Assembly: GCA_025210805.1 (NCBI GenBank)
Contig: JAOAQX010000011.1
Coordinates: 673-64,672 of the forward strand
Length of the DNA stretch: 64,000 nt
From: Flavobacteriales bacterium
GTDB taxonomy: Bacteria > Bacteroidota > Bacteroidia > Flavobacteriales > CAJXXR01
Direction: 5' to 3'
Made by a program: the position numbers and the translations under genes. The notes below the pieces were generated by a model. It was not told the DNA's origin. It searched no databases and saw nothing but the letters and a program-made list of their open reading frames with translations. This document shows positions 3,165 through 59,213 of the stretch, piece by piece (positions within the stretch are counted from its first letter, which is position 1; each line of letters starts with the position of its first letter).

Positions 3165-4571
3165 TTAATAATGAATCAATTTTGAAACAGAATTACCTTT
3201 AGCATGGTGATAATTCAAATAATAAACTCCCATAGGGAAGTTACCCAAATTCATTTCTACAAAAGAAGATTCTACTTTTTTTGAGATCAAAGTTCTTCCT
3301 TGTACATCTTGAAGGGTTATTATTCCTCCTGAGGATAAATTCTCTAAACTAATCATTCCTGATTGGTACGTATATTCAAGTTCTGGGATATTTTCTTCTT
3401 CTACTTCCAAGTCATATCTTCTATAAAATTTCCTTCTGGCTTTATGCTCAAACTGATGATCGGTAAGTAAGCTGTCGCCTTGATCTGTTGTTACTAATAG
3501 ATCTCCCATAGCATAACCATCGGGTGTATTTCCTGATAGTATCCCATTTCCTGTTTTGTCTTCTACTACTATTTCATAGCATTCAAAACCTCCGTATCCT
3601 ACAAAAGCGGTATATTTATATTCTTTGTTTTCTTCCGTATATTTCGGACTTTTCACAAGGGTATCTCCATTTTCTCTAATGATTGACCAAGAAATTTCTT
3701 GTGGATAATAATCTGTCGTTAAGGTGATGAAAATTTTCTCAAAAACATCTCTACCTTCTCTCAAAATCTGATTAAAAGTATTGTTCTCTGGGTAAGGATC
3801 TTTTATATTATTGATGCTATCAATTTCAAATTCTAATAAATCATACCCTGAAATTCCATCTAAATCCATAAAAATGGTATCCACCTGATAAGGCGACAGA
3901 AAACCATTCCAATAAGTAACACCTCTAACAATTCCTGCTTCTTTAGCAGTAATTTTTGCTTTTGTTAATGGAAGTGTCTGTGAGTAGTTTTGGATATAAA
4001 ATTGTGCTTGATGTGATTTATTACAATATTGATCATCGGCAATAAAGTTATAGATCTTTGCATCTAAAATTCGGTTTGAAAGTGGAGCACATTGTCCCGA
4101 TAATGCTGTGATATAAGATGTATCGTCAAAAATAGACCCTTTTCTCACCATCCATCCTTTATCTGGACAAATAATTACAAACATCGGTTCGCTCAAGTCC
4201 CAATTATAAGCATCAAAGTCTTGAACATTTGAAACTACTGGGTATAAAATGTTATGGGTATTTGCAAAAGCAGACTCATTATTTGTTAAAGTATCCATGT
4301 CTATGGAAATTAAAATATGAGAGGCATTCCCAAAAAGTCCGTGTGTGTTATTGAGATCATTCATTCCTGGTCTTGAACTGATACTTGCAGGATGACTGGA
4401 ATTATAAAACTCGAGAACTACCGTTCTATTTTGAGATAAATAGGTGTAGATATTATGAGAAACCCCGCTAATATCATCAAAAACCACATTGGGAGCCACT
4501 GGATGTGTAGGCTGTGCCGATAGTGGTATCAAAAACATAAGATAAACAGAAAATAAAATACTTCTTAGCAT
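3165..4571 (-). CDS. secreted protein with T9SS type A C-terminal sorting domain
   Basis: N-terminal signal peptide. The C-terminal ~80 aa (…GIITLQDVQGRTLISKKVESSFVEMNLGNFPMGVYYLNYHHAKGNSVSKLIHY) match the Por/T9SS CTD pattern. Confidence 0.65.
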   Translation of the reverse strand: MLRSILFSVYLMFLIPLSAQPTHPVAPNVVFDDISGVSHNIYTYLSQNRTVVLEFYNSSHPASISSRPGMNDLNNTHGLFGNASHILISIDMDTLTNNESAFANTHNILYPVVSNVQDFDAYNWDLSEPMFVIICPDKGWMVRKGSIFDDTSYITALSGQCAPLSNRILDAKIYNFIADDQYCNKSHQAQFYIQNYSQTLPLTKAKITAKEAGIVRGVTYWNGFLSPYQVDTIFMDLDGISGYDLLEFEIDSINNIKDPYPENNTFNQILREGRDVFEKIFITLTTDYYPQEISWSIIRENGDTLVKSPKYTEENKEYKYTAFVGYGGFECYEIVVEDKTGNGILSGNTPDGYAMGDLLVTTDQGDSLLTDHQFEHKARRKFYRRYDLEVEEENIPELEYTYQSGMISLENLSSGGIITLQDVQGRTLISKKVESSFVEMNLGNFPMGVYYLNYHHAKGNSVSKLIHY

Positions 4572-22417: not shown

Positions 22418-23782
22418 ATGAAACCACTGAAGATACACATATTATTGTTTGTGCTACTACTCTCCACTTCGTCAGGGACAGTAGCACAGAGTTTACCTAT
22501 AGGGGAGAATTATCATCTAGTTTTTAATGATGAATTTAGTGATAGTCTCATCAATACAGACAAATGGGAACAAAAAACACCATGGAACACCGCTACTAAT
22601 CTATTCATTGACTATTACGATGATGGAACAATTAAAAAAATATATGAACTGGCTTATCATAAATGGAGAGACCAAACAACCGATTACCGACCAGATACCA
22701 CAAACTGCAAGGTCTCTAATGGTACGGTAAAACTATATACCCGAAAAGAAAATTACGATGGTAATATCTGGGTTTGGGCACCATGCTACGCCAATGGAAT
22801 AACCATAGACGGTGATTCTTGTGATGATATGGTATATGGCCCTGGGGAAGATATTTCATCCTCTACTGGGTATAGATGCTTTGTAAGTAGCCGATATTTA
22901 CCTTATAAGTACACTACAGGAATGCTCTTTTCCAAAAAAAGCTTTAAATATGGCTATTTTGAAATCCGTTTTCGCCTTCCTCCGCCCCCTACTGCCCCCA
23001 AAAGACATATTGGGTTTGGACCCAATTTTTGGCTCTATAGTGCTGATAAAGATGGATCAAATTTCGGGTACGAAAATCACTGGAGTGAGATCGATATTTT
23101 TGAAATTGGCTATGACCAAGAGAACAATCTAAGCAATCTTTATACTACCAATGTGCATTATAGACCAATAGGTAGTGCTAGTAGTCATATCTCTAAAACA
23201 GGAAGACATGGCTATATCAGCTCAAACGAATGGCACACAGCTGGTATGCTTTGGACTTCGTCCGAAATAGAATTTTATCTGGACGGAGTAAAAATCAGAG
23301 ACTTTGAGCAAGAAATATCTATGCCAACAGACTCCCTCGTTCCTATGCCTCTTTGGATAGATATCTATTCTCCCAATAGAAATTTTGGAATCGATTTTGA
23401 CACACTAAGCACCAACGGAACTGCATTCCCTTATGTATATGAACTAGACTATGTGAGGGTATATCAGCTAAAACAAGCTTGTGAAATATCCAAACAGTAT
23501 TGTTCTGTTTTTGATGCAAGCACTTATGATGAACAACTCTATAAAAATATTGAATTTGGAGGGCTAGGTTGCCAACTAAATCTCGATAATTCGGAAGAAG
23601 TCACTTTTATGAGCGCTGAGGATATCGTATTTCACAATCAGGTGGAATTAAAACCTCAGGCAACCACCATTTTTGGAACACATATTTGTGAGCCTTATGA
23701 CCTTATACCAAAAATAGAACCCGACACCACAGTGGAACCCCCTCTATATTCTAAAATAAAATTTCTATCCGATGAAAACTAA
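22418..23782 (+). CDS. glycoside hydrolase family 16 (laminarinase-like) protein
   Basis: Signal peptide and the GH16 catalytic motif E-I-D-I-F-E (WSEIDIFEIG). Overlaps the next gene by 11 nt. Confidence 0.7.
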   Translation: MKPLKIHILLFVLLLSTSSGTVAQSLPIGENYHLVFNDEFSDSLINTDKWEQKTPWNTATNLFIDYYDDGTIKKIYELAYHKWRDQTTDYRPDTTNCKVSNGTVKLYTRKENYDGNIWVWAPCYANGITIDGDSCDDMVYGPGEDISSSTGYRCFVSSRYLPYKYTTGMLFSKKSFKYGYFEIRFRLPPPPTAPKRHIGFGPNFWLYSADKDGSNFGYENHWSEIDIFEIGYDQENNLSNLYTTNVHYRPIGSASSHISKTGRHGYISSNEWHTAGMLWTSSEIEFYLDGVKIRDFEQEISMPTDSLVPMPLWIDIYSPNRNFGIDFDTLSTNGTAFPYVYELDYVRVYQLKQACEISKQYCSVFDASTYDEQLYKNIEFGGLGCQLNLDNSEEVTFMSAEDIVFHNQVELKPQATTIFGTHICEPYDLIPKIEPDTTVEPPLYSKIKFLSDEN

Positions 23783-24464
23783 TTTATCATTAATTCTTCT
23801 TCTTTTGAGTATAGCAATTCACAATTCCTACGCTCAAATAACACCGGATTCGCTTTTGGGTGTTTATGTTGGGAAGTACTATAATAATCATAATGCTAAT
23901 TCTGACAATTGGTATATCGTTTCTGAGAATTGGACTGTACCCATCAAGGATTTAGATACACTAAATTGTCTTTCAAATAAAAGCATCACTCCATCTGGGA
24001 GTCAGCCATTTGTTTTCACTACTCCTTATGATTTTTGTAATTCAGATTTTGAGTATCAAGAAAACAATCCCGACTACTATAGATTTAATAGATTTTACGG
24101 AAAAGACAGTCTATGGGGCAATAATGAATTCATTCCAGGTCCACCACCTACAGGAACTCCATATTCCACAAGATTTATCGGGAAAAAGATGTATGAAATA
24201 GGAACAACAGAGCTGGAAAACATGCTTGCTATTCAAGTATATCCTAACCCAGCCAAAGAACTACTCAATATCCGTACAGAAGAAGATATACAGGCGGTGG
24301 ATATTCATATCTTTAATAGCAGAGGGCAAAGAGTGAAAACTTTTATAGAAAAGTACCATAAAAACTGGCTACAGGTAGATGTTTTAGATCTTCCCAAAGG
24401 AATTTATTATATCAAAATAACTTCCTTTGGAAGGGTATTTCATCAGAAATTTATTAAGATATGA
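23772..24464 (+). CDS. secreted T9SS-CTD protein, tandem paralog 1
   Basis: Signal peptide, variable middle, and a C-terminal block (…QVYPNPAKELLNIRTEEDIQAVDIHIFNSRGQRVKTFIEKYHKNWLQVDVLDLPKGIYYIKITSFGRVFHQKFIKI) with a T9SS type A CTD pattern. The stop overlaps the next start (ATGA). Confidence 0.65.
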   Translation: MKTNLSLILLLLSIAIHNSYAQITPDSLLGVYVGKYYNNHNANSDNWYIVSENWTVPIKDLDTLNCLSNKSITPSGSQPFVFTTPYDFCNSDFEYQENNPDYYRFNRFYGKDSLWGNNEFIPGPPPTGTPYSTRFIGKKMYEIGTTELENMLAIQVYPNPAKELLNIRTEEDIQAVDIHIFNSRGQRVKTFIEKYHKNWLQVDVLDLPKGIYYIKITSFGRVFHQKFIKI

Positions 24465-25150
24465 AACATATTTTTTTAATCCTTCTTCTTTTGAGTATAG
24501 CAATTCACGATTCCTACGCTCAAATAACACCGGATTCGCTTTTGGGTGTTTATGTTGGGGATCGTTTCAAAAAAACCAATGCCTATTCAAATGAATGGCT
24601 TCTGACTTCTAAGAATTGGGTAGTCACAGTGGACAAATTGGACACTACAACCTGTATTATTAGTGAAACCGTTACCCCTTGGGGTAATGCTACAATATAT
24701 CTTTATACATCTTATGATTTTTGCTTTGCAGATTTTAATTATCAAGAAAATGACCCCAACTATTATAAGTTTAGTTGGTTTTATGGAAAAGACAGTCTTT
24801 GGGCTAATAATGAATTCATTCCAGGCCCTCCTCCAAGTGGAACCCCATACTCTTTAAGATTTATCGGGAAAAAGATGTACGAAATAGGAACAACAGAGTT
24901 GGAAAATATGCTCGCTATTCAAGTATATCCTAACCCAGCCAAAGAACTGCTCAATATCCGTACAGAAGAAAACCTAGAGGCGATGGATATTCATATCTTT
25001 AATAGCAGAGGGCAAAGAGTGAAAACTTTTATAGAAAAGTACCATAAAAACTGGCTACAGGTAGATGTATTGGACCTACCCAAAGGGATCTATTATATCA
25101 AAATAGCTTCCTTTGGAAGGGTTTTTCATCAGAAATTTATTAAAATATGA
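24461..25150 (+). CDS. secreted T9SS-CTD protein, tandem paralog 2
   Basis: Near-identical first ~35 codons and last ~100 codons to 23772..24464, with a diverged middle. The ATGA overlap with the next ORF is also present. Confidence 0.65.
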   Translation: MKHIFLILLLLSIAIHDSYAQITPDSLLGVYVGDRFKKTNAYSNEWLLTSKNWVVTVDKLDTTTCIISETVTPWGNATIYLYTSYDFCFADFNYQENDPNYYKFSWFYGKDSLWANNEFIPGPPPSGTPYSLRFIGKKMYEIGTTELENMLAIQVYPNPAKELLNIRTEENLEAMDIHIFNSRGQRVKTFIEKYHKNWLQVDVLDLPKGIYYIKIASFGRVFHQKFIKI

Positions 25151-28243: not shown

Positions 28244-28564
28244 ATGATACTTACTACGACTCCTTCTATTGAAGGTAAACACATTGTACAATACCATGGG
28301 ATAGTGACGGGCGAAACCATCATTGGAGCCAATATATTCAAAGATTTCTTCGCCTCGATCCGAGATGTAGTTGGAGGAAGAAGCGGCTCTTATGAAAAAG
28401 TTTTGAGAGAAGCAAAAGACACTGCACTCAAAGAAATGGAAGAATTGGCAAGACAATTAGGTGCCAATGCTGTAGTGGGTATAGACCTCGACTACGAAAC
28501 TGTTGGAAATGGTGGTGGAATGCTGATGGTCACGGCAAGTGGAACAGCCGTTTCTATAAGATAA
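28244..28564 (+). CDS. YbjQ/UPF0145 family protein
   Basis: 106 aa. [13 protein letters not shown]…[14 protein letters not shown] is characteristic of YbjQ. Confidence 0.8.
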
Positions 28565-28730
28565 ACGGAAAACAGAATAGTGAGTTTGACGAATAATTGA
28601 AACTAATTTATAAAGCTGTATTAATTAACCTAATTGAGCATACTCAGATTAATTATCACTACTGAACAAAGAATAATTTCTGAATTATATTAAACTAAAT
28701 TTTTTCCCCACAAACTCACTTTATTACCAT

Positions 28731-28948
28731 GAGTTCTCGATACAATTTTTGATTCCATTGCATTCCATCAAAAACCACTCGAACTGACAAATCGAGATAC
28801 AATTTTTGACTCCACTGCATTCCATCAAAAACCACTTCCCGATGGGTCTCCCGAGATTATCGGGACTGAACTGACAGGGTTGTATCGAGTATGTCACTTC
28901 AAGTGATTTCTTTGGAGAGAAACGGAAAAGAAATTGTATCGAGAACAC
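28731..28948. repeat. cluster of hairpin-forming intergenic repeat units (family shared with 56287-56660)
   Basis: Two direct copies of TCGATACAATTTTTGA(T/C)TCCA(T/C)TGCATTCCATCAAAAACCACT… plus a reverse copy of GTTCTCGATACAATTTCTTTTCCG…CTCCAAAGAAATCACTTGAAG. The same units occur in the opposite orientation at 56.3-56.7 kb. Confidence 0.7.
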
Positions 28949-29035
28949 ACACAACAAAAATTGATTTAATTTTCTGTAAATTGAACTTTAAATCATACAA
29001 AATAACTACTTTAACAAAAATTTTTTAACCGAAAT

Positions 29036-29437
29036 ATGAAAAGCAATAGCTTCTTAAAAGTAAAAAATTACCTCCTTGATTTGAAATACGATATTTCTTA
29101 TCAAAATGAAAAAGATGGAATTCTGATGATACAGAATGAACCAGAGGGAATCAAAAATCTGCTCATAGGATTAGCAGATCCTATTTTGATTATGGAACAA
29201 TACCTCTGTACCATTCCTAGCCCTACGGCAGAAATCTATTCAGAATTGCTCAAAAAAAACCGAGACATGGTACATGGCGCCTTCGTGTTGGATGAATCTA
29301 AAACGAAGCTGATTTTTAGAGATACACTTCAGTTAGAAAATTTGGATCAAAACGAACTCGAAGCCTCCATCAACTCATTAAGTCTCCTACTAAGCGAGTA
29401 TTCCAATGAGATACTCAAGTATTCATCAAAAAAATAA
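29036..29437 (+). CDS. hypothetical soluble protein (possibly YbjN-like), first gene of the PspA-flotillin module
   Basis: 133 aa with no TM segment, 7 nt upstream of pspA. Confidence 0.5.
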   Translation: MKSNSFLKVKNYLLDLKYDISYQNEKDGILMIQNEPEGIKNLLIGLADPILIMEQYLCTIPSPTAEIYSELLKKNRDMVHGAFVLDESKTKLIFRDTLQLENLDQNELEASINSLSLLLSEYSNEILKYSSKK

Positions 29438-38427: not shown

Positions 38428-38430
38428 CAC

Positions 38431-38792
38431 CACACGGGAAGGTTATCGCTTTTTGGCTTTGAGCCAAAAAGAGGAAAGTCCGGACTGCACAGAGCACCAT
38501 ACTTCCTAACGGGAAGGCTTCAGGAAACTGGAGACAGCTAGTGTTACAGAAAACAACCGCCAATTCTGTTGGTAAGGGTGAAAAGGTGAGGTAAGAGCTC
38601 ACCAGTGCATTATGCAAATAGTGTAGCTGAACAAACCTTATGGGCAGAAAGATCATGTAAACCGAAGCTTTGTAGCAATACAAAAAAAGTCTGCTCGGCT
38701 GATTCGGAGGGTAGATCGATGGATTCCAAAAGTGATTTTGGAACTAGAGAAATGATAATCTAGATACAGAATCCGGCTTATTACCCGTGTAT
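38431..38792 (+). ncRNA. rnpB: RNase P RNA (bacterial type A)
   Basis: Universally conserved P4 strand GAGGAAAGTCCGGACT at 38481-38496 and the complementary-strand element ACAGAATCCGGCTTA at 38766-38780. A P1 helix forms between ACACGGG (38433-38439) and CCCGTGT (38784-38790) and is followed by a T-run. Length ~360 nt. Confidence 0.85.
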
Positions 38793-38811
38793 TTTTTATA
38801 AACAAAGACAA

Positions 38812-41460: not shown

Positions 41461-42825
41461 ATGACCCACTACTCAAAAGTGATAATGGCTATTGCCTTAT
41501 CATTATTTTCCTATAAGCTTACAGCTCAGTATGGAATAGGAACTCTCACTCCAGATGCTTCAGCTATAGTTGATGTAAGCAGTACTACCAAAGGTTTTTT
41601 ACCTCCTAGACTTTACAAAGGCGTTATAAACAATATCCAATCCCCTGCAGAAGGACTTACAGCATATTGTATCAATTGTTGTACAGGTGGAACTCTCACC
41701 TTTTATAATGGAGATAAATGGGTTTATTTGAGAGAAGATTGTATGTCTGATGTAGATGGGGATCATATTAGTGATCAAACAGATATTGATGCTGATAACG
41801 ACGGCATTATTGACACTAATGAAACTGCCAATATTGCTTTCTTTGAGGATCCATTTGGATCTGCCTCATCCCTATCTGGAGGATGTGCTCGAGCACCACT
41901 TAGTGCTCCAAATTATTCGGGAATTAGTTATGCAGGAACTGGTAACGTTACTGACGGACATTATGCCCTTATAAACAAGACTTCCTGCGGAGCTCCATTC
42001 TGGCCATCATCACCTATTCAAAGTGATAATTCATCTTCAGGAAATAATGGTTATTTTATACTCGTAAATGCACCAAACAACGGAAATGAAGTTGTTTATG
42101 GAAGGGAAATAACCAATATCCCACATAATTCTACTTTGAATGTTAGCCTATTCATTGCCAATATTGCACCTAATCTAGTAGATAAACCAGACCTGAAGTT
42201 TCGATTCGTTAAGACAAATGGAGTTGTCCTAGATAGTGTAAACACTGGTGATATCACCAACGGGAATTGGCAAAAATACACTTTGAAGCTTGATACAAAG
42301 ACAGATGACACACTTAATTTCGAAATCGTAAACAACTGTGCTTGTGGGCAGGCTGGTAATGACTTTGCCATTGATGATTTAGAGATTCGTATCAAATATG
42401 GAGATTTAGATGGAGATAATATTCCAGACAACCGAGATCAAGACTCGGATGGAGATGGTATTCCAGACATAATAGAAGCTCAAGGACATCCTTTTAATTT
42501 ACCAACAGGCAATGACTCAGATGGAGATGGACTGGATGATGCTTACGAAACTGCGGGAATTATTAATCCACCAAATACTGATGCAGCTAGTGAAAATAGC
42601 TCAGGAACTTACCCAAATTATTTAGATACAGACTCTGACAATGATGGAATTTCTGATACTCAAGAAGCTGGTCTTACCTTGACAGGCAATGACTCAGATG
42701 GAGATGGACTAGATGATGCGGTAGATAATACAGTGGGGCCAGATAATCCCTATGGAATATTCCAAAATTACACTTTTCCAGACTCAGACAGCGATGGAAC
42801 ACCAGATTATATAGACAACAACTAA
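41461..42825 (+). CDS. secreted protein with thrombospondin type 3 (Ca-binding DxDxDGxxDxxD) repeats
   Basis: Signal peptide plus repeated DSDGDGIPD / NDSDGDGLDDA / DSDNDGISD motifs in the C-terminal third. Confidence 0.65.
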   Translation: MTHYSKVIMAIALSLFSYKLTAQYGIGTLTPDASAIVDVSSTTKGFLPPRLYKGVINNIQSPAEGLTAYCINCCTGGTLTFYNGDKWVYLREDCMSDVDGDHISDQTDIDADNDGIIDTNETANIAFFEDPFGSASSLSGGCARAPLSAPNYSGISYAGTGNVTDGHYALINKTSCGAPFWPSSPIQSDNSSSGNNGYFILVNAPNNGNEVVYGREITNIPHNSTLNVSLFIANIAPNLVDKPDLKFRFVKTNGVVLDSVNTGDITNGNWQKYTLKLDTKTDDTLNFEIVNNCACGQAGNDFAIDDLEIRIKYGDLDGDNIPDNRDQDSDGDGIPDIIEAQGHPFNLPTGNDSDGDGLDDAYETAGIINPPNTDAASENSSGTYPNYLDTDSDNDGISDTQEAGLTLTGNDSDGDGLDDAVDNTVGPDNPYGIFQNYTFPDSDSDGTPDYIDNN

Positions 42826-46330: not shown

Positions 46331-47311
46331 ATGAAAAATACATTGATAATAATCTTTTCATTTGGAATTTTAATTTCCTGCAATTCTTTTTACACTCAGT
46401 ACACAGGAGATAAAAGAATGGATACAAAAAAAATGAATTTCCCTACACGGCCTCAGGAAAAAGAAATTCAAGTATTTTATCCTGAACTCAAAAATCTACC
46501 AAAAGAAGACTATTACCTTGTTATGGAAATGAAGACATCCTGCTGTCAAAATAACCAAGCAAAAATAAATCGTTTAAAAAGTATTGCTGCCCAAAATGGT
46601 TTAGATGCCATAATAATCACAGGTACGACAACAATAAATGGCTCTTATGAAAAAAGCCAAACAACTTTGCTAGATGTCCTCTCGAATTCAGATACACCTC
46701 CTCCCACAGTTCATCATTACACCGATGAAGTCCCTCATGCTAAAGGAATTAAATTCAGATCGAATATTGGACAACAAAAGCTGATTAAATCATATACATT
46801 ATTTGAAAAGAAGAAAAACGAGCGTAGCTTCATTGAAACTCTTTATCCAATAAACAATCAAATGCCTTTTTCTAAACAGCCAGTACTCTATGATCTTAAA
46901 ATAAACTCATTGGATTTCCTTGTTGAAGATACCTCCAGAAGGTGGTTCTACCTAAAAGAAAATAGTCAAGAGAAAAGATTCTGTGAAAAGCCTGAAAAAT
47001 TAAAATTTGAAATCTTTCGTGATGATCAAAATCGTGTTGTAGAACTAAAAGGAAGAAAAAAGTTTCATGTAACAGTCCTCTACAAAGCAGATGGAAACAT
47101 TCAACAAAAAGTAATTTTCAGAAATCGCATTCGCTATACAGAAAACTATGAATACCATCATAGTGGTCTCTTAAAAAAAATCAAAATCCATGAAGAGTAT
47201 CTTGATAATGATGAAGAGAAAGAAGCGAATTTTGAATTGGATATTGAATATTACCAAGACAATTCTGATTATACAGAATTCACGAATCTTTTGATTTCTG
47301 TGGAAAATTAA
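46331..47311 (+). CDS. hypothetical lipoprotein
   Basis: Lipobox (GILISCNS). 326 aa. Confidence 0.5.
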   Translation: MKNTLIIIFSFGILISCNSFYTQYTGDKRMDTKKMNFPTRPQEKEIQVFYPELKNLPKEDYYLVMEMKTSCCQNNQAKINRLKSIAAQNGLDAIIITGTTTINGSYEKSQTTLLDVLSNSDTPPPTVHHYTDEVPHAKGIKFRSNIGQQKLIKSYTLFEKKKNERSFIETLYPINNQMPFSKQPVLYDLKINSLDFLVEDTSRRWFYLKENSQEKRFCEKPEKLKFEIFRDDQNRVVELKGRKKFHVTVLYKADGNIQQKVIFRNRIRYTENYEYHHSGLLKKIKIHEEYLDNDEEKEANFELDIEYYQDNSDYTEFTNLLISVEN

Positions 47312-47343
47312 TACCATTTATGGTGTTAATTTACTCATAGGTA

Positions 47344-47690
47344 TAATGCCGATACATTGCTAAAAGCCAGCTATGAACGCAGTGAAATTGGACTTCACCT
47401 TTTTGTCTAATGCCGATATATTGGTAAAAATCAATTACGAACGAAGTGAAGTAAGTGATTATTTAACAAATAATCGGTATAAGTGGGTAATTTTAGCCAG
47501 TAATCGGTATAAGTGATTTGTAGAACAAAAAAATCCCCAAAATAAAATATTAATTTGGGGATATAAAAGTGATCTTGAAGCGTTTATTATACCATTTGTG
47601 GCGTTAATTTACCCTTAGGTATATGCCGATACATTACTAAAAATCAATTATGAATGAAATAAGAGCGTAACTTTAGTAAGTAATCGGTAC
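47344..47690. repeat. three imperfect direct copies of a ~65-bp unit (TGCCGATAyATTrnTAAAArnCArnTAyGAAyG…), plus duplicated AGTAATCGGTATAAGTG
   Basis: Copies start near 47345, 47409 and 47621. The longer blocks at 47318-47343 and 47590-47619 (ACCATTTrTGGyGTTAATTTAC…) are also duplicated. Confidence 0.6.
47524..47562 (-). terminator. rho-independent terminator (minus strand) downstream of the SPFH gene
   Basis: ATCCCCAAA…TTTGGGGAT, a 9-bp stem, followed on the minus strand by T7. Confidence 0.45.
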
Positions 47691-48604
47691 TACTCTTCTA
47701 ATTTATTTTTGTTTGCTTCACTAATAGTCTGTGCTGCACTAAAAGATGTTACCATATTCGTTAACATATCTGAAGCTGCTGTTGGAGAATTTGGAAGTAA
47801 AATCAAATTAGAATTTGTACTTTCTCCTACTGCTTGTAGCGTATCATAGTGTTGGGTAATTACAATAAGTGCTGAGGCTTCTTGGGAATTAATCCCTACT
47901 CCATTTAGCACCTCTACAGACTCTTCAAGACCTCTTGCTATTTCACGTCTTTGGTCTGCAATACCCTGTCCTTGTAATTTTTTACTTTCGGCTTCTGCCT
48001 TAGCTTTTGCTACTATTCTAATTCTTTCTGCTTCTGCTTCATACTCTGCTGCCAATTTTTCTCTTTCGGCTGCATTAATACGGTTCATGGCTTCTTTTAC
48101 AGACAAATCTGGCTCGATATCCGTCACCAGTGTTTTGATGATATCATAACCGTATTCTCTCATAGCTTCTTTAAGCTCATTTTTTACGGCAATGGCTATA
48201 TCATCTTTTCTTTCGAAAACATCGTCAATTTTCATTTTAGGAACTTCGGCTCTAACGGTATCAAATACATAAGAAGTGATCTGAGAACCTGGGTTTTCTA
48301 GCTTATAAAATGCTTCAAAAACTTTATCTGCCAATACTTGGAACTGTACAGATACTTGGAGAATAACGAATACATCATCTTTGGTCTTCGTTTCAATCCT
48401 TACATCCAACTGTTGAATTCTCATACTGAGTGTTCCTGCTTTTCTATCGATCAATGGAATTTTCATTTGAAGTCCTGAACGGCGAACAGATACAAATTTT
48501 CCGAAACGTTCTATAATTACGGCTGTTTGTTGTTTTACCACAAAAAATGCAGCAAAAAACAAAATCAAAACTATAGGGAGTAAAATAAATAATCCTGGGG
48601 TCAT
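47690..48604 (-). CDS. SPFH/band-7 (stomatin/slipin-like) family protein
   Basis: N-terminal TM followed by an SPFH core (QQTAVIIERFGKFVSVRRSGLQMKIPLIDR…). Confidence 0.8.
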   Translation of the reverse strand: MTPGLFILLPIVLILFFAAFFVVKQQTAVIIERFGKFVSVRRSGLQMKIPLIDRKAGTLSMRIQQLDVRIETKTKDDVFVILQVSVQFQVLADKVFEAFYKLENPGSQITSYVFDTVRAEVPKMKIDDVFERKDDIAIAVKNELKEAMREYGYDIIKTLVTDIEPDLSVKEAMNRINAAEREKLAAEYEAEAERIRIVAKAKAEAESKKLQGQGIADQRREIARGLEESVEVLNGVGINSQEASALIVITQHYDTLQAVGESTNSNLILLPNSPTAASDMLTNMVTSFSAAQTISEANKNKLEE

Positions 48605-55130: not shown

Positions 55131-56252
55131 ATGAAACACCTCAGTATTTTTATTTTTTTAATTTTTCTTGTCTCTTGTGACAAAGATGATATTTCTCAAA
55201 AAGAAGAACCTGAAACGAATATTGAATACCAACATGAAACACTCCATACTGGTTTTCAAAATCCTTGGGCTTTAGACTTCCTGCCCAATAACGAAATATT
55301 AATCACCGAAAGACCTGGGAAATTATCCATTTTCTCAAACGGACAAATCTTATCTGTATCTGGACTACCTTCTACCATAAAAAGCACTGGACAAGGTGGT
55401 TTGATGGATATTTTAGTTCATGAATCCAATGGAAATAACCATACTCTTTTCTTTAGTGCCACCAATGAAGTAAATGGACAATGGTCCACCGCCATATTTA
55501 GAGGAAATTTAGATCGTGAAAACCTCAATCTTAACAATATTTCCAAAATATACCAAGTAGCACAAATGACCACTACTTCTTATCATTTTGGAAGTAGAAT
55601 TTGGATAGAAAACAACCAATATATTTATCTTACTTTAGGCGAAAATGGAATGCAAAATGAGGCTCAGGATAATTCTAATGCGCTCGGAACAATTGTTAGA
55701 CTTAATCTCGATGGAAGCATTCCTGCAGACAATCCATTTGTAGGAAACAATTCTGCTTTGAATGAAATATGGTCCTACGGACATAGAAATATTCAAGGTT
55801 TGGCAATTCATCCCGAGACTAACGCCATCTGGACACACGAGCATGGACCGCTTGGTGGAGATGAAGTCAATATCATACAAAAAGGCGGAAATTACGGTTG
55901 GCCAATTGCCACTTATGGAAAAAACTATAACGGTACAACCATTACAGACTCAACCCATATACAAGGAACTATTCAGCCCGAAATTTATTGGACACCTTCT
56001 ATCGCACCATGTGGTATGACTTTCTGCACGGGGAAAGCATTTCCTCAATGGAAAAACCATGTGTTTGTAGGTGCACTAGCAAAACAACATATTAACCGCT
56101 TGGCAGTTGAAGGTGGAAAACTGGTTGAAAAAGAAAGAATGTTTCAAGACTTCGGAAGATTTAGAGCCATTAAAGAAAGCCCAGAAGGGCATCTCTATAT
56201 CCTTTCTGAAGGAAATGGAGGAAAACTCAGTAGAATTATCCCGAAAAAGTAA
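55131..56252 (+). CDS. PQQ-dependent soluble sugar (aldose/sorbosone) dehydrogenase, beta-propeller
   Basis: Lipoprotein signal. GLAIHPETNAIWTHEHGPLGGDEVNIIQKGGNYGWP is typical of YliI/SGDH-family enzymes. Confidence 0.8.
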   Translation: MKHLSIFIFLIFLVSCDKDDISQKEEPETNIEYQHETLHTGFQNPWALDFLPNNEILITERPGKLSIFSNGQILSVSGLPSTIKSTGQGGLMDILVHESNGNNHTLFFSATNEVNGQWSTAIFRGNLDRENLNLNNISKIYQVAQMTTTSYHFGSRIWIENNQYIYLTLGENGMQNEAQDNSNALGTIVRLNLDGSIPADNPFVGNNSALNEIWSYGHRNIQGLAIHPETNAIWTHEHGPLGGDEVNIIQKGGNYGWPIATYGKNYNGTTITDSTHIQGTIQPEIYWTPSIAPCGMTFCTGKAFPQWKNHVFVGALAKQHINRLAVEGGKLVEKERMFQDFGRFRAIKESPEGHLYILSEGNGGKLSRIIPKK

Positions 56253-56286: not shown

Positions 56287-56660
56287 ATATAATGTCCTTG
56301 GATGAAGTTCTCGATACAATTTCTTTTCCGCTTCCCTCCAAAGAAATCACTCGAACTGATACACTTGATAAAAATTGTATGGCTTTTGTCAGTTCGAGTG
56401 ATTTTTGATGGAATGCAATGGAGTCAAAAATTGTATCGAGAATGGCATTCGATAATCAAAAAATTTCCCGATAAAATTTCTTTTCCGTTGCCCTCCAAAG
56501 AAATCACTCGAACTGACATACTCGATACAACCCTGTCAGTTCGAGTGAATTTTCTGAAGAGTAACGAAAGAAAATTTTTATCGAGAACCCGCTTCTCTAC
56601 AAAGAAATCACTCGAACTGACATACTTGATAAAATTTCTTTCGGAGCGAAGTATTTTCCA
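56287..56660. repeat. cluster of hairpin-forming intergenic repeat units (same family as 28731-28948)
   Basis: Three direct copies of …TTTCTTTTCCG(C/T)T(T/G)CCCTCCAAAGAAATCACTCGAACTGA(C/T)A… and a reverse copy of the TCGATACAATTTTTGACTCCATTGCATTCCATCAAAAA unit. CACTCGAACTGACA / TGTCAGTTCGAGTG form inverted repeats. Confidence 0.7.
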
Positions 56661-56714
56661 TCATTGAGTTTTTTTACTTAAATTACTGGTTTAATAATCA
56701 AATATTTAAGTGAA

Positions 56715-59213
56715 ATGAATTGGAGATTCACCTTTCTATTCTTTTCCTTAACTCTTTCAACTCTTGCTCAAACGACTTCTATTACCGATAATTTTTCTGA
56801 TGGAGATTTTGTCCAAAACCCAACATGGAAAGGAGATACCGCTTTATTCCAAGTAGATAATTACCAATTGCGTTTAAATGGTAATTCTGCATTAGCTCCA
56901 TCCTTTTTAGGACTTTCGTCCGAAATTATTGATTCTGCTCATTGGCAGTTTTATACCCAAATGGATTTCAATCCTTCATCTTCAAACTTTTTGGAGATTA
57001 TCTTATATTCAGAAGATTCTTTACACACTATTGAGAACAATCAATTAATTGTAGAAGTAGGTAGAAGTTCCGACAAAATTCGTGTTCTAAAGGTATTGAA
57101 CGGACAAAAAGAAACAGTAACAGAAACTACTTCGGGAATATTCAGCGGAAATTATCAAACCATTTGGTGGAATATAGAACATGAAAATCAAACATGGCAA
57201 ATAAACTATAGTTTAGATAGTCTGAATTGGCAAAGTCTTCCCCATTTTTCATTTGCGGCAAATCAAAATAAGCTTTTTGGTTTTAGATGCCGTTATACAT
57301 CTACCCGAAAAGACAAATTTTGGTTTGATAATATAAACATTCAGGGGAGCCCTTTTCAGGATAAAACCCCACCAAAAATCACCCACTTCACTTCAGAATC
57401 CAATCAATATATTCATCTAAAATTTTCGGAAAAAATACTGATTACTTCTGCTGAAATTAAAACCCAAGCAGGAGCTGTTCCCAAAGGACAGCAACACTAT
57501 GGAGATAGTTTAATTCTTGATTTTACGAATCTTGAATACAACAAAAAGCATCTTCTAAATCTAAAAAACATTCAGGATTTAAAAGGAAACTCATTGGACA
57601 CCAGTTTTACCGTTTTATGGTCTAGAATCAAAGCTTATGATATCCTGATTTCAGAAATTCTCCCAACCATAAACACAGCAACAAAACCCGTTTCAGACCC
57701 TTGCATTGAACTCTATAATCCAAGTGAATTTGGGATTCAATTATCAGAGTTCACACTAAAAATTGACCAGAAAGAATATCTACACCCCTCTTTTTGGCTT
57801 GAGCCCAATGCTGTGGTTTTAGTTTATGACAAAGAAGCTAAGAATTTCAAAACGGGAAAATCCAAAATAGTTTTAGACAAAACCTTTTATCTAAAGAAAA
57901 CAGGGAGCAGTCTCTCTATTTGGGAATCCGACCACCCAATTCATTGGGTTTCTTATACAGATGATTGGTTTCAAACAGATTTTAAAAAAGACGGAAATTG
58001 GAGTCTAGAACTTATTAAGCCCAACAAAGCTTGCTTAGGAAAATGGGCTTGGGAAGAATCAACCGCTCCAAGTGGAGAGACTTTAGGTGAAATAAACTCT
58101 GAACATGAGATGATACTGGATAAACTAGATCCGCTATTTTTATATTGCCCTACTGATAGTGTCTTAGAAATCACTTTTCCTGTTTTGACACTTGAGAATT
58201 TGTTTGTGAACGACACGTTTTACACCATTAGTAAAGCCATAAAATATATAGAAAGAATCAATGGGAATTCTTTTAGAATAAATTTTAAAAAACCACTTAA
58301 AAATGGAGAATTAGAGCAAATTTCATTTGAAAATTTACCCTTTTGTGATGAAAATGTCCATTTTCCGCAAAAGGAATTTTTCTACAATTCTTCAAAACCA
58401 CAAGAAGGAATCATAATCAATGAGATTCGTTTTGAAACCACAGAAAATCATGTAGAATATATCGAAATATATAATCAAAATGAATATCCTATTGAAAGTT
58501 CTCAACTGGTTTTGGGTGTTTATACAGACCAATGGAATTATCAAAATCTCCCTGAAAAAAATCAATATATCTCAGCAAAGTCTTATGCCGTTCTTACGAA
58601 GAATAAAAAATTATTAGAAGTAGAATATGACCTTCCAGAAGAATCAAACCTCATAGAAATGCACGATTTTCCTAACTTGAATAATACGGGAGGAAAAATA
58701 GGTTTTTTTAATACTTCCATACATCAAATAGACCAAGCTTGTTATGAATCTTCCTGGCATTCTTCTGGTGTTGAAAACACAGAAAATAAAGCCTTAGAAA
58801 AAATCGATTTTGAGCTGAATGGATGTCAATCAAACACTTGGGCTACGGCAAGTAGCACACAAAATTATGGAACTCCTGGAAGAATCAACAGTCAGGTATT
58901 CATAGGAAAAACAGAAGATTTCATGGAACTTTTCACTCCCAATGGTGATGGCGATCAGGATTTTTGGAATTATTATAAGACTTTTTCTAGTCCAGAAAAT
59001 TTATTGGATGTTCATATTTATTCTCTAAATGGTGTATTGAAAAAAAGCTTTTTCACAAAAAAGTTAATCGGAAATCAAATAAAGATACAATGGAATGGGG
59101 CAGATGAAAATGGGAACCAATTATCAACAGGCACCTATATTTTTTGGTTAAAAAACTACTCTACTGGTGAAGAAGTAAAAAAAGCAATCAACTTAATTGT
59201 TGAAATTAATTAA
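56715..59213 (+). CDS. large secreted protein with two lamin-tail-like domains and a T9SS type B (CHU_C) sorting domain
   Basis: Signal peptide. LTD-like segments (ILISEILPTIN…DPCIELYNPSEF…; IIINEIRFETTENHVEYIEIYNQNEYPI). C-terminal FTPNGDGDQDFWNYY…NLIVEIN matches the type B CTD hallmark (ftPNGDGxNDxf). Confidence 0.7.
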   Translation: MNWRFTFLFFSLTLSTLAQTTSITDNFSDGDFVQNPTWKGDTALFQVDNYQLRLNGNSALAPSFLGLSSEIIDSAHWQFYTQMDFNPSSSNFLEIILYSEDSLHTIENNQLIVEVGRSSDKIRVLKVLNGQKETVTETTSGIFSGNYQTIWWNIEHENQTWQINYSLDSLNWQSLPHFSFAANQNKLFGFRCRYTSTRKDKFWFDNINIQGSPFQDKTPPKITHFTSESNQYIHLKFSEKILITSAEIKTQAGAVPKGQQHYGDSLILDFTNLEYNKKHLLNLKNIQDLKGNSLDTSFTVLWSRIKAYDILISEILPTINTATKPVSDPCIELYNPSEFGIQLSEFTLKIDQKEYLHPSFWLEPNAVVLVYDKEAKNFKTGKSKIVLDKTFYLKKTGSSLSIWESDHPIHWVSYTDDWFQTDFKKDGNWSLELIKPNKACLGKWAWEESTAPSGETLGEINSEHEMILDKLDPLFLYCPTDSVLEITFPVLTLENLFVNDTFYTISKAIKYIERINGNSFRINFKKPLKNGELEQISFENLPFCDENVHFPQKEFFYNSSKPQEGIIINEIRFETTENHVEYIEIYNQNEYPIESSQLVLGVYTDQWNYQNLPEKNQYISAKSYAVLTKNKKLLEVEYDLPEESNLIEMHDFPNLNNTGGKIGFFNTSIHQIDQACYESSWHSSGVENTENKALEKIDFELNGCQSNTWATASSTQNYGTPGRINSQVFIGKTEDFMELFTPNGDGDQDFWNYYKTFSSPENLLDVHIYSLNGVLKKSFFTKKLIGNQIKIQWNGADENGNQLSTGTYIFWLKNYSTGEEVKKAINLIVEIN

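Follow-up and report, generated by a model that had tools for sequence, protein, structure and literature searches.

What are the two clusters of hairpin-forming repeats that lie between genes in this stretch of Flavobacteriales DNA (64,000 nt of contig JAOAQX010000011.1, part of a metagenome-assembled genome; hereafter the window), and which protein, if any, do they serve? The window carries six full and two damaged copies of one unit of about 57 nt, gathered in two intergenic clusters (table 1). These clusters are arrays of an extragenic repeat found throughout the Flavobacteriales, and we consider it fairly probable that the repeat serves as the cognate site for a small GIY-YIG nuclease homologous to the SsnA protein of Neisseria.

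In each unit a hairpin whose stem varies in sequence stands between an L box (GTTCTCGATACAA) and an R box (YCACTCGAACTGACR; general form (T/C)CACTCGAACTGAC(A/G)). In the window the hairpin has an A/T-rich stem of 7-8 bp and a loop of 13 nt, and falls into three stem types, A (TTTTTGAT / ATCAAAAA), B (TTTCTTT / AAAGAAA) and C (ATTTTCT / AGAAAAT), whose sequences differ yet remain complementary, A and B being present in both clusters. The complementary strand of the unit reads 5'-YGTCAG-TTCGA-GTG-(variable 7-10 bp A/T-rich stem, 11-13 nt loop)-TTGTA-TCGA-GAAC-3', with the YGTCA(G) tag directly 5' of the stem foot. A covariance model (R1), built from 24 equal-length units of other genomes and run with its filters off, recovered the six full units from the 64 kb at 49-63 bits (E 2e-16 to 3e-12); all of its matches fall in the two clusters, with nothing elsewhere in the window. 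When up to three mismatches are allowed, CACTCGAACTGACA occurs nine times in the window as against 3.3 ± 1.7 times in shuffles (none of 100 reaches nine), its seven good copies all lying within the two clusters; the L box is likewise far above shuffle expectation, with its good copies confined to the same places. The initial annotation had described cluster 1 as two tandem units plus an inverted copy of a second unit type, and these are indeed the two type-A units (28739-28779 and 28796-28836; 95% identity; 57-nt spacing; family D15) and the type-B unit 3. Its further statements, that both types recur inverted at the second locus (56305-56590; pairs I1-I3 of 58-78 nt, 88-97% complementary) and that the open reading frame (ORF) translations over the repeats are spurious, hold as well: the 77-aa ORF at 28724-28957 (-) and the 121-aa ORF at 56302-56667 (+) lie wholly on repeats and are best read as their artefacts. 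The third hairpin type, C (unit 7), is an addition to that description.

The unit is widespread. An exact-pattern scan (TCGATAMAA-N24-36-CACTCGAACTGA, that is, the two boxes 24-36 nt apart) over a species-representative genome collection returned at least 120 loci; among the matches listed, 118 belong to Flavobacteriales or unclassified Bacteroidota, and more than 35 named genera are represented. Families among the matches listed include Flavobacteriaceae, Weeksellaceae and Crocinitomicaceae, among others; one listed locus is labelled Chitinophaga, and one listed Planctomycete match, without GTTC, looks like chance. Several genomes were matched on three to five different contigs. Although the pattern did not demand it, GTTC stands just 5' of it in 125 of 142 distinct units, and the base that follows is C in 138 of the 142. 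Thus, the family is dispersed, as had been proposed from the window, and is not a local segmental duplication; its boxes are shared by members of the whole order. None of the loci fetched from other genomes has the window's hairpin subtypes A, B or C, and the consensus unit had no match in a plasmid collection. Units are strictly extragenic: none of 297 lies inside an ORF of at least 200 aa, although 68% of bases are in such ORFs. Neighbouring units are mostly inverted relative to each other (189 of 239 pairs, 79%), and because of this alternating orientation neighbouring pairs form long hairpins (z -6 and -12). Head-to-head and tail-to-tail doublets both occur, with variable spacers, while 45 of 145 loci hold a single unit only. 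Long regular tandem arrays were also seen (L004 6949-7871, L050 83-589, L126 2134-4631, L010 and L038), with periods of 110, 121, 183, 213 and about 270 nt and with inter-unit segments that are conserved too. Arrays of this kind (L004, L050 and similar) have a CRISPR-like look, an identity that we rejected: they have no unique spacers, the "spacers" themselves being conserved, and are therefore tandem repeats.

The variable stem covaries. Over the 853 kb of element loci R1 returned 275 + 60 units, and in the 150 best of these 93.4% of stem cells are paired, against 76.5% in shuffles, double-sided changes occupy 248 cells (shuffles, 70; slid-partner controls, 46 or fewer), and covariation is seen in seven of seven stem pairs. 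Having been fitted to the model, the alignment is biased towards the structure, yet the difference is large. The loop is semi-conserved (TCRTTnCAYT). Among non-Watson-Crick stem pairs A.C outnumbers G.T (23 vs. 8), so that wobble is tolerated on the YGTCAG strand, a pattern that folding of the complementary strand would produce; we take this asymmetry as weak evidence for such a strand preference. An additional outer stem drawn from the flanks is statistically real (mean anchored run 2.65 vs. 2.15 ± 0.10 in controls), yet it occurs in only about 15% of units and we rejected it as a defining part.

Which protein goes with the unit? We clustered all ORFs of 120 element loci without prior assumptions, and a GIY-YIG protein of about 97 aa emerged as the second-largest ORF cluster and the only one adjoining units. 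It is present in 11-15 of the 120 loci (about 15 by tblastn), almost without exception no more than 500 bp from a unit. When the 150 ORFs closest to units were assigned to Pfam families, GIY-YIG came first with eight members, every other family having at most three. The initial annotation had suggested a REP-associated tyrosine transposase (RAYT; REP, repetitive extragenic palindromic) as the partner, an idea that finds no support here, since none recurs among these 150 ORFs and GIY-YIG is enriched instead. The gene is commonly bracketed, as in locus L029, where units at 3200-3258(-) and 3266-3322(+) precede the gene (3328-3618) and units at 3718-3777(-) and 3785-3841(+) follow it. The GIY-YIG proteins of these other genomes have 95-107 aa and a single Pfam match, PF01541, over residues 4-76. 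An alignment of ten of them (A3) shows 49-68% identity across genera and invariant Y7, Y17, R27, H31 and E65, which we take to be the GIY-YIG catalytic set, as in I-TevI.

The reciprocal test, in which 80 metagenome loci were fetched by way of the A3 protein alone, gave the same picture. At 60% identity or more, a threshold relative to one query, R1 units abut the gene in 23 of 25 loci (~92%), usually on both sides. Up to 500 bp from the gene there are 1.42 units per kb, farther out 0.20 per kb, and the gap between unit and gene has a median of 42 nt on the upstream side and 24 nt on the downstream side; counts obtained with nhmmer are of lower sensitivity than those of the covariance model. 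The upstream unit lies on the strand opposite to the gene in at least 27 of 33 cases, which gives 5'-YGTCAG...GAAC - gene - GTTC...CTGACR-3' as the commonest module; the orientation of the downstream unit is mixed. In Tenacibaculum retecalamus (CP115916, about 81.7-84.5 kb; L209, gene at 1501-1791) a module of gene plus doublet is found between moeA and moaC, as a tandem duplication whose period is 481 nt. The association of nuclease gene and unit holds in both directions of search.

This arrangement recalls a recently described system. Ssn proteins (Chenal et al., Nat Commun 2025, PMC11893778) are single-domain GIY-YIG nucleases of about 94 aa (CDD cd10448) that bind hairpin repeats whose 5' flank is conserved (NTS, CGTCATTCCCGCGMAVGCGGGAATCYRG) and cleave single-stranded DNA (ssDNA) only, not RNA, on one strand only and upstream of the repeat (PMC11893778). 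The ssn genes have the repeat on both sides and hundreds of dispersed extragenic copies besides; direct recognition of the site was demonstrated biochemically in Neisseria and Wolbachia, and the Neisseria system modulates natural transformation (PMC11893778). Neither Bacteroidota nor Flavobacteria are named in the main text of that paper; we found no literature on an Ssn follow-up in Bacteroidota, and a search for GIY-YIG proteins with REP or with Flavobacteria gave nothing specific apart from the Ssn paper itself. As a positive control we used the ssnA/NTS locus of NZ_CP119140.1 (L203), from which the gonococcal ssnA was recovered as a 94-aa ORF with 16 NTS copies within 2.6 kb. This record and NZ_CP119142.1 are 2.17-Mb Neisseria gonorrhoeae sequences, labelled as plasmids in PLSDB and evidently chromosomes. 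The Flavobacterial protein shares 43% identity over 76 aa with the gonococcal SsnA (BLASTP E 5e-17; hhalign probability 98.4%), and its clade, to judge from these alignments, is a homologue of SsnA.

The likeness extends to the whole layout. In both systems the known or predicted nuclease is a GIY-YIG protein of one domain and only 94-97 aa, and the hairpin repeat that brackets its gene has further copies scattered over the genome; the repeats are extragenic, occur in arrays of both orientations and are directional, the YGTCA tag lying 5' of the stem foot (cf. CGTCA in NTS); and different nuclease clades carry different repeats. There are differences too. The Flavobacterial repeat has about 57 nt against the 28 nt of NTS; it is also set apart by two boxes that are long and conserved, by a distal stem that varies freely, by its internal loop and by a semi-conserved loop of 11-13 nt. 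Around the gene its tags point outward, whereas the nearest NTS copies of the gonococcal locus point inward. Unlike the Neisseria system, the Flavobacterial one has no known link to natural transformation. Altogether, the Flavobacterial system is probably an Ssn-type pair of nuclease and site, with a new site architecture and a sister clade of the nuclease.

More distant relatives of the enzyme extend this pattern. Homologues below about 60% identity have no R1 units and are flanked instead by another inverted repeat, GTCA-N2-5-TGAG-N4-9-CGAA, in the form TGTCA-(4-5 bp covarying stem)-TGAGC...TCGAAG-(stem'). This second repeat is near the gene in 33 of the 80 gene-first loci (L143, L147, L150, L155, L160, L164 and 27 more, at 500 bp or less), at 1.68 per kb near the gene and 0.087 per kb far from it (19-fold), and among the 80 loci it never shares one with the R1 type; it has no match to the published SRM motif. 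In Hanstruepera flava (L096) a canonical SsnA-like gene at 1690-2065, whose product is 47% identical to the gonococcal SsnA, has the NTS-like TGTCATTCCTGCGAAAGCAGGAATCC on both sides, and the same 8-kb stretch also carries R1-type units, so that two Ssn-type systems appear to coexist in one Flavobacterial genome. Each nuclease clade thus has its own flanking repeat.

How might such a pair work? When DNA is single-stranded, in replication, repair, uptake or transfer, the YGTCAG strand would fold, and the nuclease would recognise the tag, the stem foot and conserved bases of the internal loop and, by analogy with SsnA and NTS, nick a few bases 5' of the tag. In its autonomous form the system would read unit(-), nuclease gene, unit(+), the YGTCAG ends facing outward. 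Inverted doublets and arrays that lack the gene, such as those of the window, would be non-autonomous derivatives, propagated or maintained in trans and accumulating between genes. Binding and cleavage of ssDNA by the Flavobacterial enzyme, the choice of the active strand and the way in which copies spread are what we infer from the comparison with Ssn, and the genome of the window would presumably encode the nuclease.

Besides the fitted alignment mentioned above, several observations weigh against this interpretation. There is no GIY-YIG gene within the 64-kb window, and the gene is found in only about 10% of element loci; most copies are thus remote from it, which is expected of a dispersed site but would also fit independent functions. 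The published SRM search motif (HGTCWYN(0-2)YYVSBRHN(0-5)WNVSBRGN(0-2)RNCYNB) has no match in the window and none near the gene in the 80 gene-first loci; it matches four times in the 853 kb of element loci and nine times in the Neisseria control locus. Unlike Ssn proteins, the Flavobacterial clade is about as near to UPF0213/YazA as to SsnA: the A3 profile scores the UPF0213 protein BH0048 (PDB 1zg2) at 71.8 bits and SsnA at 54.9, and with UPF0213 scoring slightly higher the clade may lie either inside cd10448 or beside it. As for structure, the P1 pairing (TCGA/TCGA, alternatively GTTC/GAAC) is invariant and, because it never varies, gains no support from covariation. Folding is strong in inverted pairs only; that of a unit on its own is weak (about -5 kcal/mol, z about -1), and the structural evidence is therefore comparative, not energetic.

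A bolder version of the Ssn-type interpretation would have the unit-gene-unit module be an autonomous mobile element that moves via ssDNA, with GIY-YIG in the place of HUH or DDE enzymes; the doublets and arrays of the window would be its non-autonomous copies, akin to miniature inverted-repeat transposable elements (MITEs), and subtypes A, B and C lineages of different paralogues. We regard this as doubtful. If real, such a GIY-YIG-driven module would establish a class of insertion sequences new to bacteria. The insertion-sequence-like architecture of NTS-ssnA-NTS and the parallel with RAYT and REP were remarked on by the authors of the Ssn study (PMC11893778).

Alternatively, the unit could be an older site maintained by the host, for instance for a nucleoid or recombination protein, and the GIY-YIG gene a selfish, homing-type gene that targets the repeats. 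The gene does lie inside pre-existing arrays in one locus (L126), and its presence in only a tenth or so of element loci, together with the mixed orientation of the downstream unit, would fit such a history; yet clade-specific, mutually exclusive repeats are more simply explained as co-evolving pairs of enzyme and site, and in Neisseria and Wolbachia the same pattern reflects direct recognition (PMC11893778). We therefore find this account unlikely. It, too, makes the repeat the recognition site of the nuclease, and differs only in who depends on whom.

A structured RNA acting in the transcript (a small RNA, a stabiliser of 3' untranslated regions, a terminator or a cis-regulator) would account for the strong covariation of the stem, the conserved single-stranded boxes, the semi-conserved loop and the outer stem seen in a subset of units. 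Orientation, however, alternates within one spacer, so that half of the units would be antisense; no Rfam family was matched by the whole window at gathering score or, in any meaningful way, by the two clusters at E up to 10; nor was any unit rated an intrinsic terminator. Nor would an RNA explain the tight bracketing of a nuclease gene, given that SsnA acts on ssDNA and not on RNA. A function at the RNA level is thus quite improbable as the primary one, although inserted hairpins possibly have a secondary effect of this kind on neighbouring genes. Low-scoring Rfam matches were spurious plant and animal microRNA-precursor models, which match any long hairpin; an inspection by eye found no match to the core of a hammerhead or other ribozyme; and a literature search with the sequences of the boxes and of the second repeat type gave unrelated primer matches only.

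The units also invite comparison with the short repeats of other bacteria. Correia/NEMIS, ERIC and the pneumococcal BOX elements are, like our units, short, intergenic, composite and able to fold into long hairpins; unlike them, these elements are to our knowledge restricted to a genus and have no dedicated nuclease gene at their flank. The REP or bacterial interspersed mosaic element (BIME) or MITE-like character proposed in the initial annotation stands in part. The units resemble REP, BIME and REP-doublet (REPIN) sequences in being extragenic, in alternating as hairpins that form doublets and arrays, in having a gene for a single-strand-specific nuclease (here predicted) flanked by its own repeats, as with RAYT, and in being mostly inherited within a lineage; they differ in the fold of the enzyme (GIY-YIG, not HUH/Y1) and in being conserved in the flanking boxes rather than in the palindrome, and across an order rather than a species. 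A MITE bounded by terminal inverted repeats (TIRs) and mobilised by a DDE transposase is not supported. Near-palindromes of 123-214 bp that end in GTTCTCGATACAATTT / AAATTGTATCGAGAAC have perfect TIR-like ends and fold into the long hairpins noted above, and presence or absence varies between relatives; such ends, however, are found in doublets only, the single units of 45 of 145 loci are no palindromes, doublets are joined both ways round with variable spacers, the 150 unit-proximal ORFs show no enrichment for a DDE transposase, conservation over more than 35 genera would be atypical, and no target-site duplication is visible at the copies of the window. All this makes the MITE account very improbable. 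Correia elements have TA target duplications, a feature not seen in the units. Least probable of all are REP/REPIN elements mobilised by a RAYT (Y1 HUH, IS200-like) transposase, for although the alternating inverted doublets and strictly extragenic placement are BIME/REPIN-like and RAYT subclasses 2.4 and 2.6 exist in Bacteroidetes, there is no Y1_Tnp among the families with two or more members in the 150 nearest ORFs and none in the ORF clusters, the units begin with GTTCTCGATACAA or YGTCAG and lack a GT[AG]G foot, REPs are usually species-specific whereas the unit's boxes are conserved across the order, and the REPs of the Bacteroidetes subclass 2.6 are unrelated, GC-rich, species-specific hairpins (PMC6006769 supplement). 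The RepRanger paper merely lists Flavobacterium genomes.

When was cluster 1 acquired? Three relatives keep the gene order HTH-YbjQ-YbjN-PspA, with YbjN proteins 84, 76 and 74% identical to that of the window; their YbjQ-YbjN spacers measure 74, 189 and 176 nt, against 471 nt in the window, and contain no R1 units at E up to 1 with filters off. Short, unit-free spacers in all three make a gain the simplest explanation, and cluster 1 was probably gained in the lineage of the window rather than lost in each of the three relatives. The empty sites of the relatives are too diverged to align. Two Logan contigs (L201 and L202), from independent short-read assemblies and with a YbjN gene identical to that of the window, stop inside unit 3, at about window position 28917, in keeping with a multicopy sequence that breaks up assemblies of this organism.

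If the Ssn-type interpretation is right, the principle of a tiny GIY-YIG nuclease with dispersed hairpin sites, described only a year ago, extends to Flavobacteriales and to other Bacteroidota. At least two Bacteroidota repeat architectures are missed by the published motif, and the true reach of the system is therefore probably underestimated. Each pair of enzyme and site is a candidate new specificity for ssDNA-cutting tools, and the bipartite, order-wide boxes around a free-running stem raise the question of how a protein of about 97 aa could recognise them. In practical terms, these repeats break short-read assemblies of Flavobacteriales metagenome-assembled genomes, generate spurious ORFs and mark intergenic regions that were recently remodelled.

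Table 1. Repeat clusters of the window and the units within them (window coordinates; R1 match, covariance-model score).
Feature	Hairpin type	Position (strand)	Sequence	R1 match	Remarks
Cluster 1		28731-28948			between YbjQ-family gene (28244-28564 +) and YbjN/CesT_Tir_1 gene (29036-29437 +)
Unit 1	A	28731..28791 (+)	GTTCTCGATACAA / TTTTTGAT-TCCATTGCATTCC-ATCAAAAA / CCACTCGAACTGACA	62.7 bits, E 2e-16	
Unit 2	A, degenerate	28792..28877 (+)	L box ATCGAGATACAA; split R box CCACT ... CTGAACTGACA	19 bits, partial (28797-28836)	R box interrupted by inserted hairpin of ~31 nt
Inserted small hairpin		28837..28867 (+)	TCCCGAT...ATCGGGA		G+C-richer; within R box of unit 2
Unit 3	B	28890..28948 (-)	TTTCTTT-TCCGTTTCTCTCC-AAAGAAA; R box mutated to CACTTGAAGTGACA	54.0 bits, E 8e-14	tail to tail with unit 2; inverted repeats I1/I2 with cluster 2
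Cluster 2		56305-56640			between glucose/sorbosone dehydrogenase gene (55131-56252 +) and LTD/CHU_C gene (56715-59213 +; product type-IX-secreted)
Unit 4	B	56305..56363 (+)		60.5 bits	direct repeat family D3
Unit 5	A	56385..56445 (-)		60.0 bits	inverted repeat I3; 97% identity to unit 1
Unit 6	B	56462..56520 (+)	L box TTCCCGATAAAA	49.1 bits	with unit 7, 123-nt near-palindrome (inverted repeat I4, 80% complementary, 15-nt gap)
Unit 7	C	56532..56590 (-)	ATTTTCT-TTCGTTACTCTTC-AGAAAAT	61.1 bits	
Truncated unit		56590..56640 (+)	L-box remnant and intact R box, no hairpin	17.2 bits, E 0.011	followed by further L-box-like remnant TACTTGATAAAATTTCTTTC

The small hairpin inserted in unit 2 may have come from another unit, as a fragment that is nested or recombinant. 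CCCGA/TCGGG hairpins like it form the distal stem of units in three other loci (L025, L037 and L066). It scored as terminator-like on the minus strand.

The window holds further features of other kinds. An unrelated intergenic family occupies 47310-47700, between the ORFs at 46331-47311 (+) and 47690-48604 (-), with three units of about 46-70 nt (...GGTATAATGCCGATACATTGCTAAAAGCCAGCTATGAACGCAGTGAA) at 47341, 47405 and 47618 and short AGTAATCGGTATAAGTG repeats at 47470-47520 and 47680; it has no Rfam match at gathering score. A full-length bacterial RNase P RNA of class A lies at 38430-38796 (+; 260 bits); no tRNA gene was found in the whole window. A tandem gene duplication occupies 23772-25150, where neighbouring paralogues of 230 and 229 aa show 72-86% DNA identity and a 686-nt period (D1/D2). 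Finally, a 38-nt segment is repeated at 42505-42719 (97% identity, 177 nt apart) inside the ORF 41461-42825; it encodes Asp/Gly-rich repeats (...TGNDSDGDGLDD...), and is thus a protein-internal repeat rather than a DNA element.

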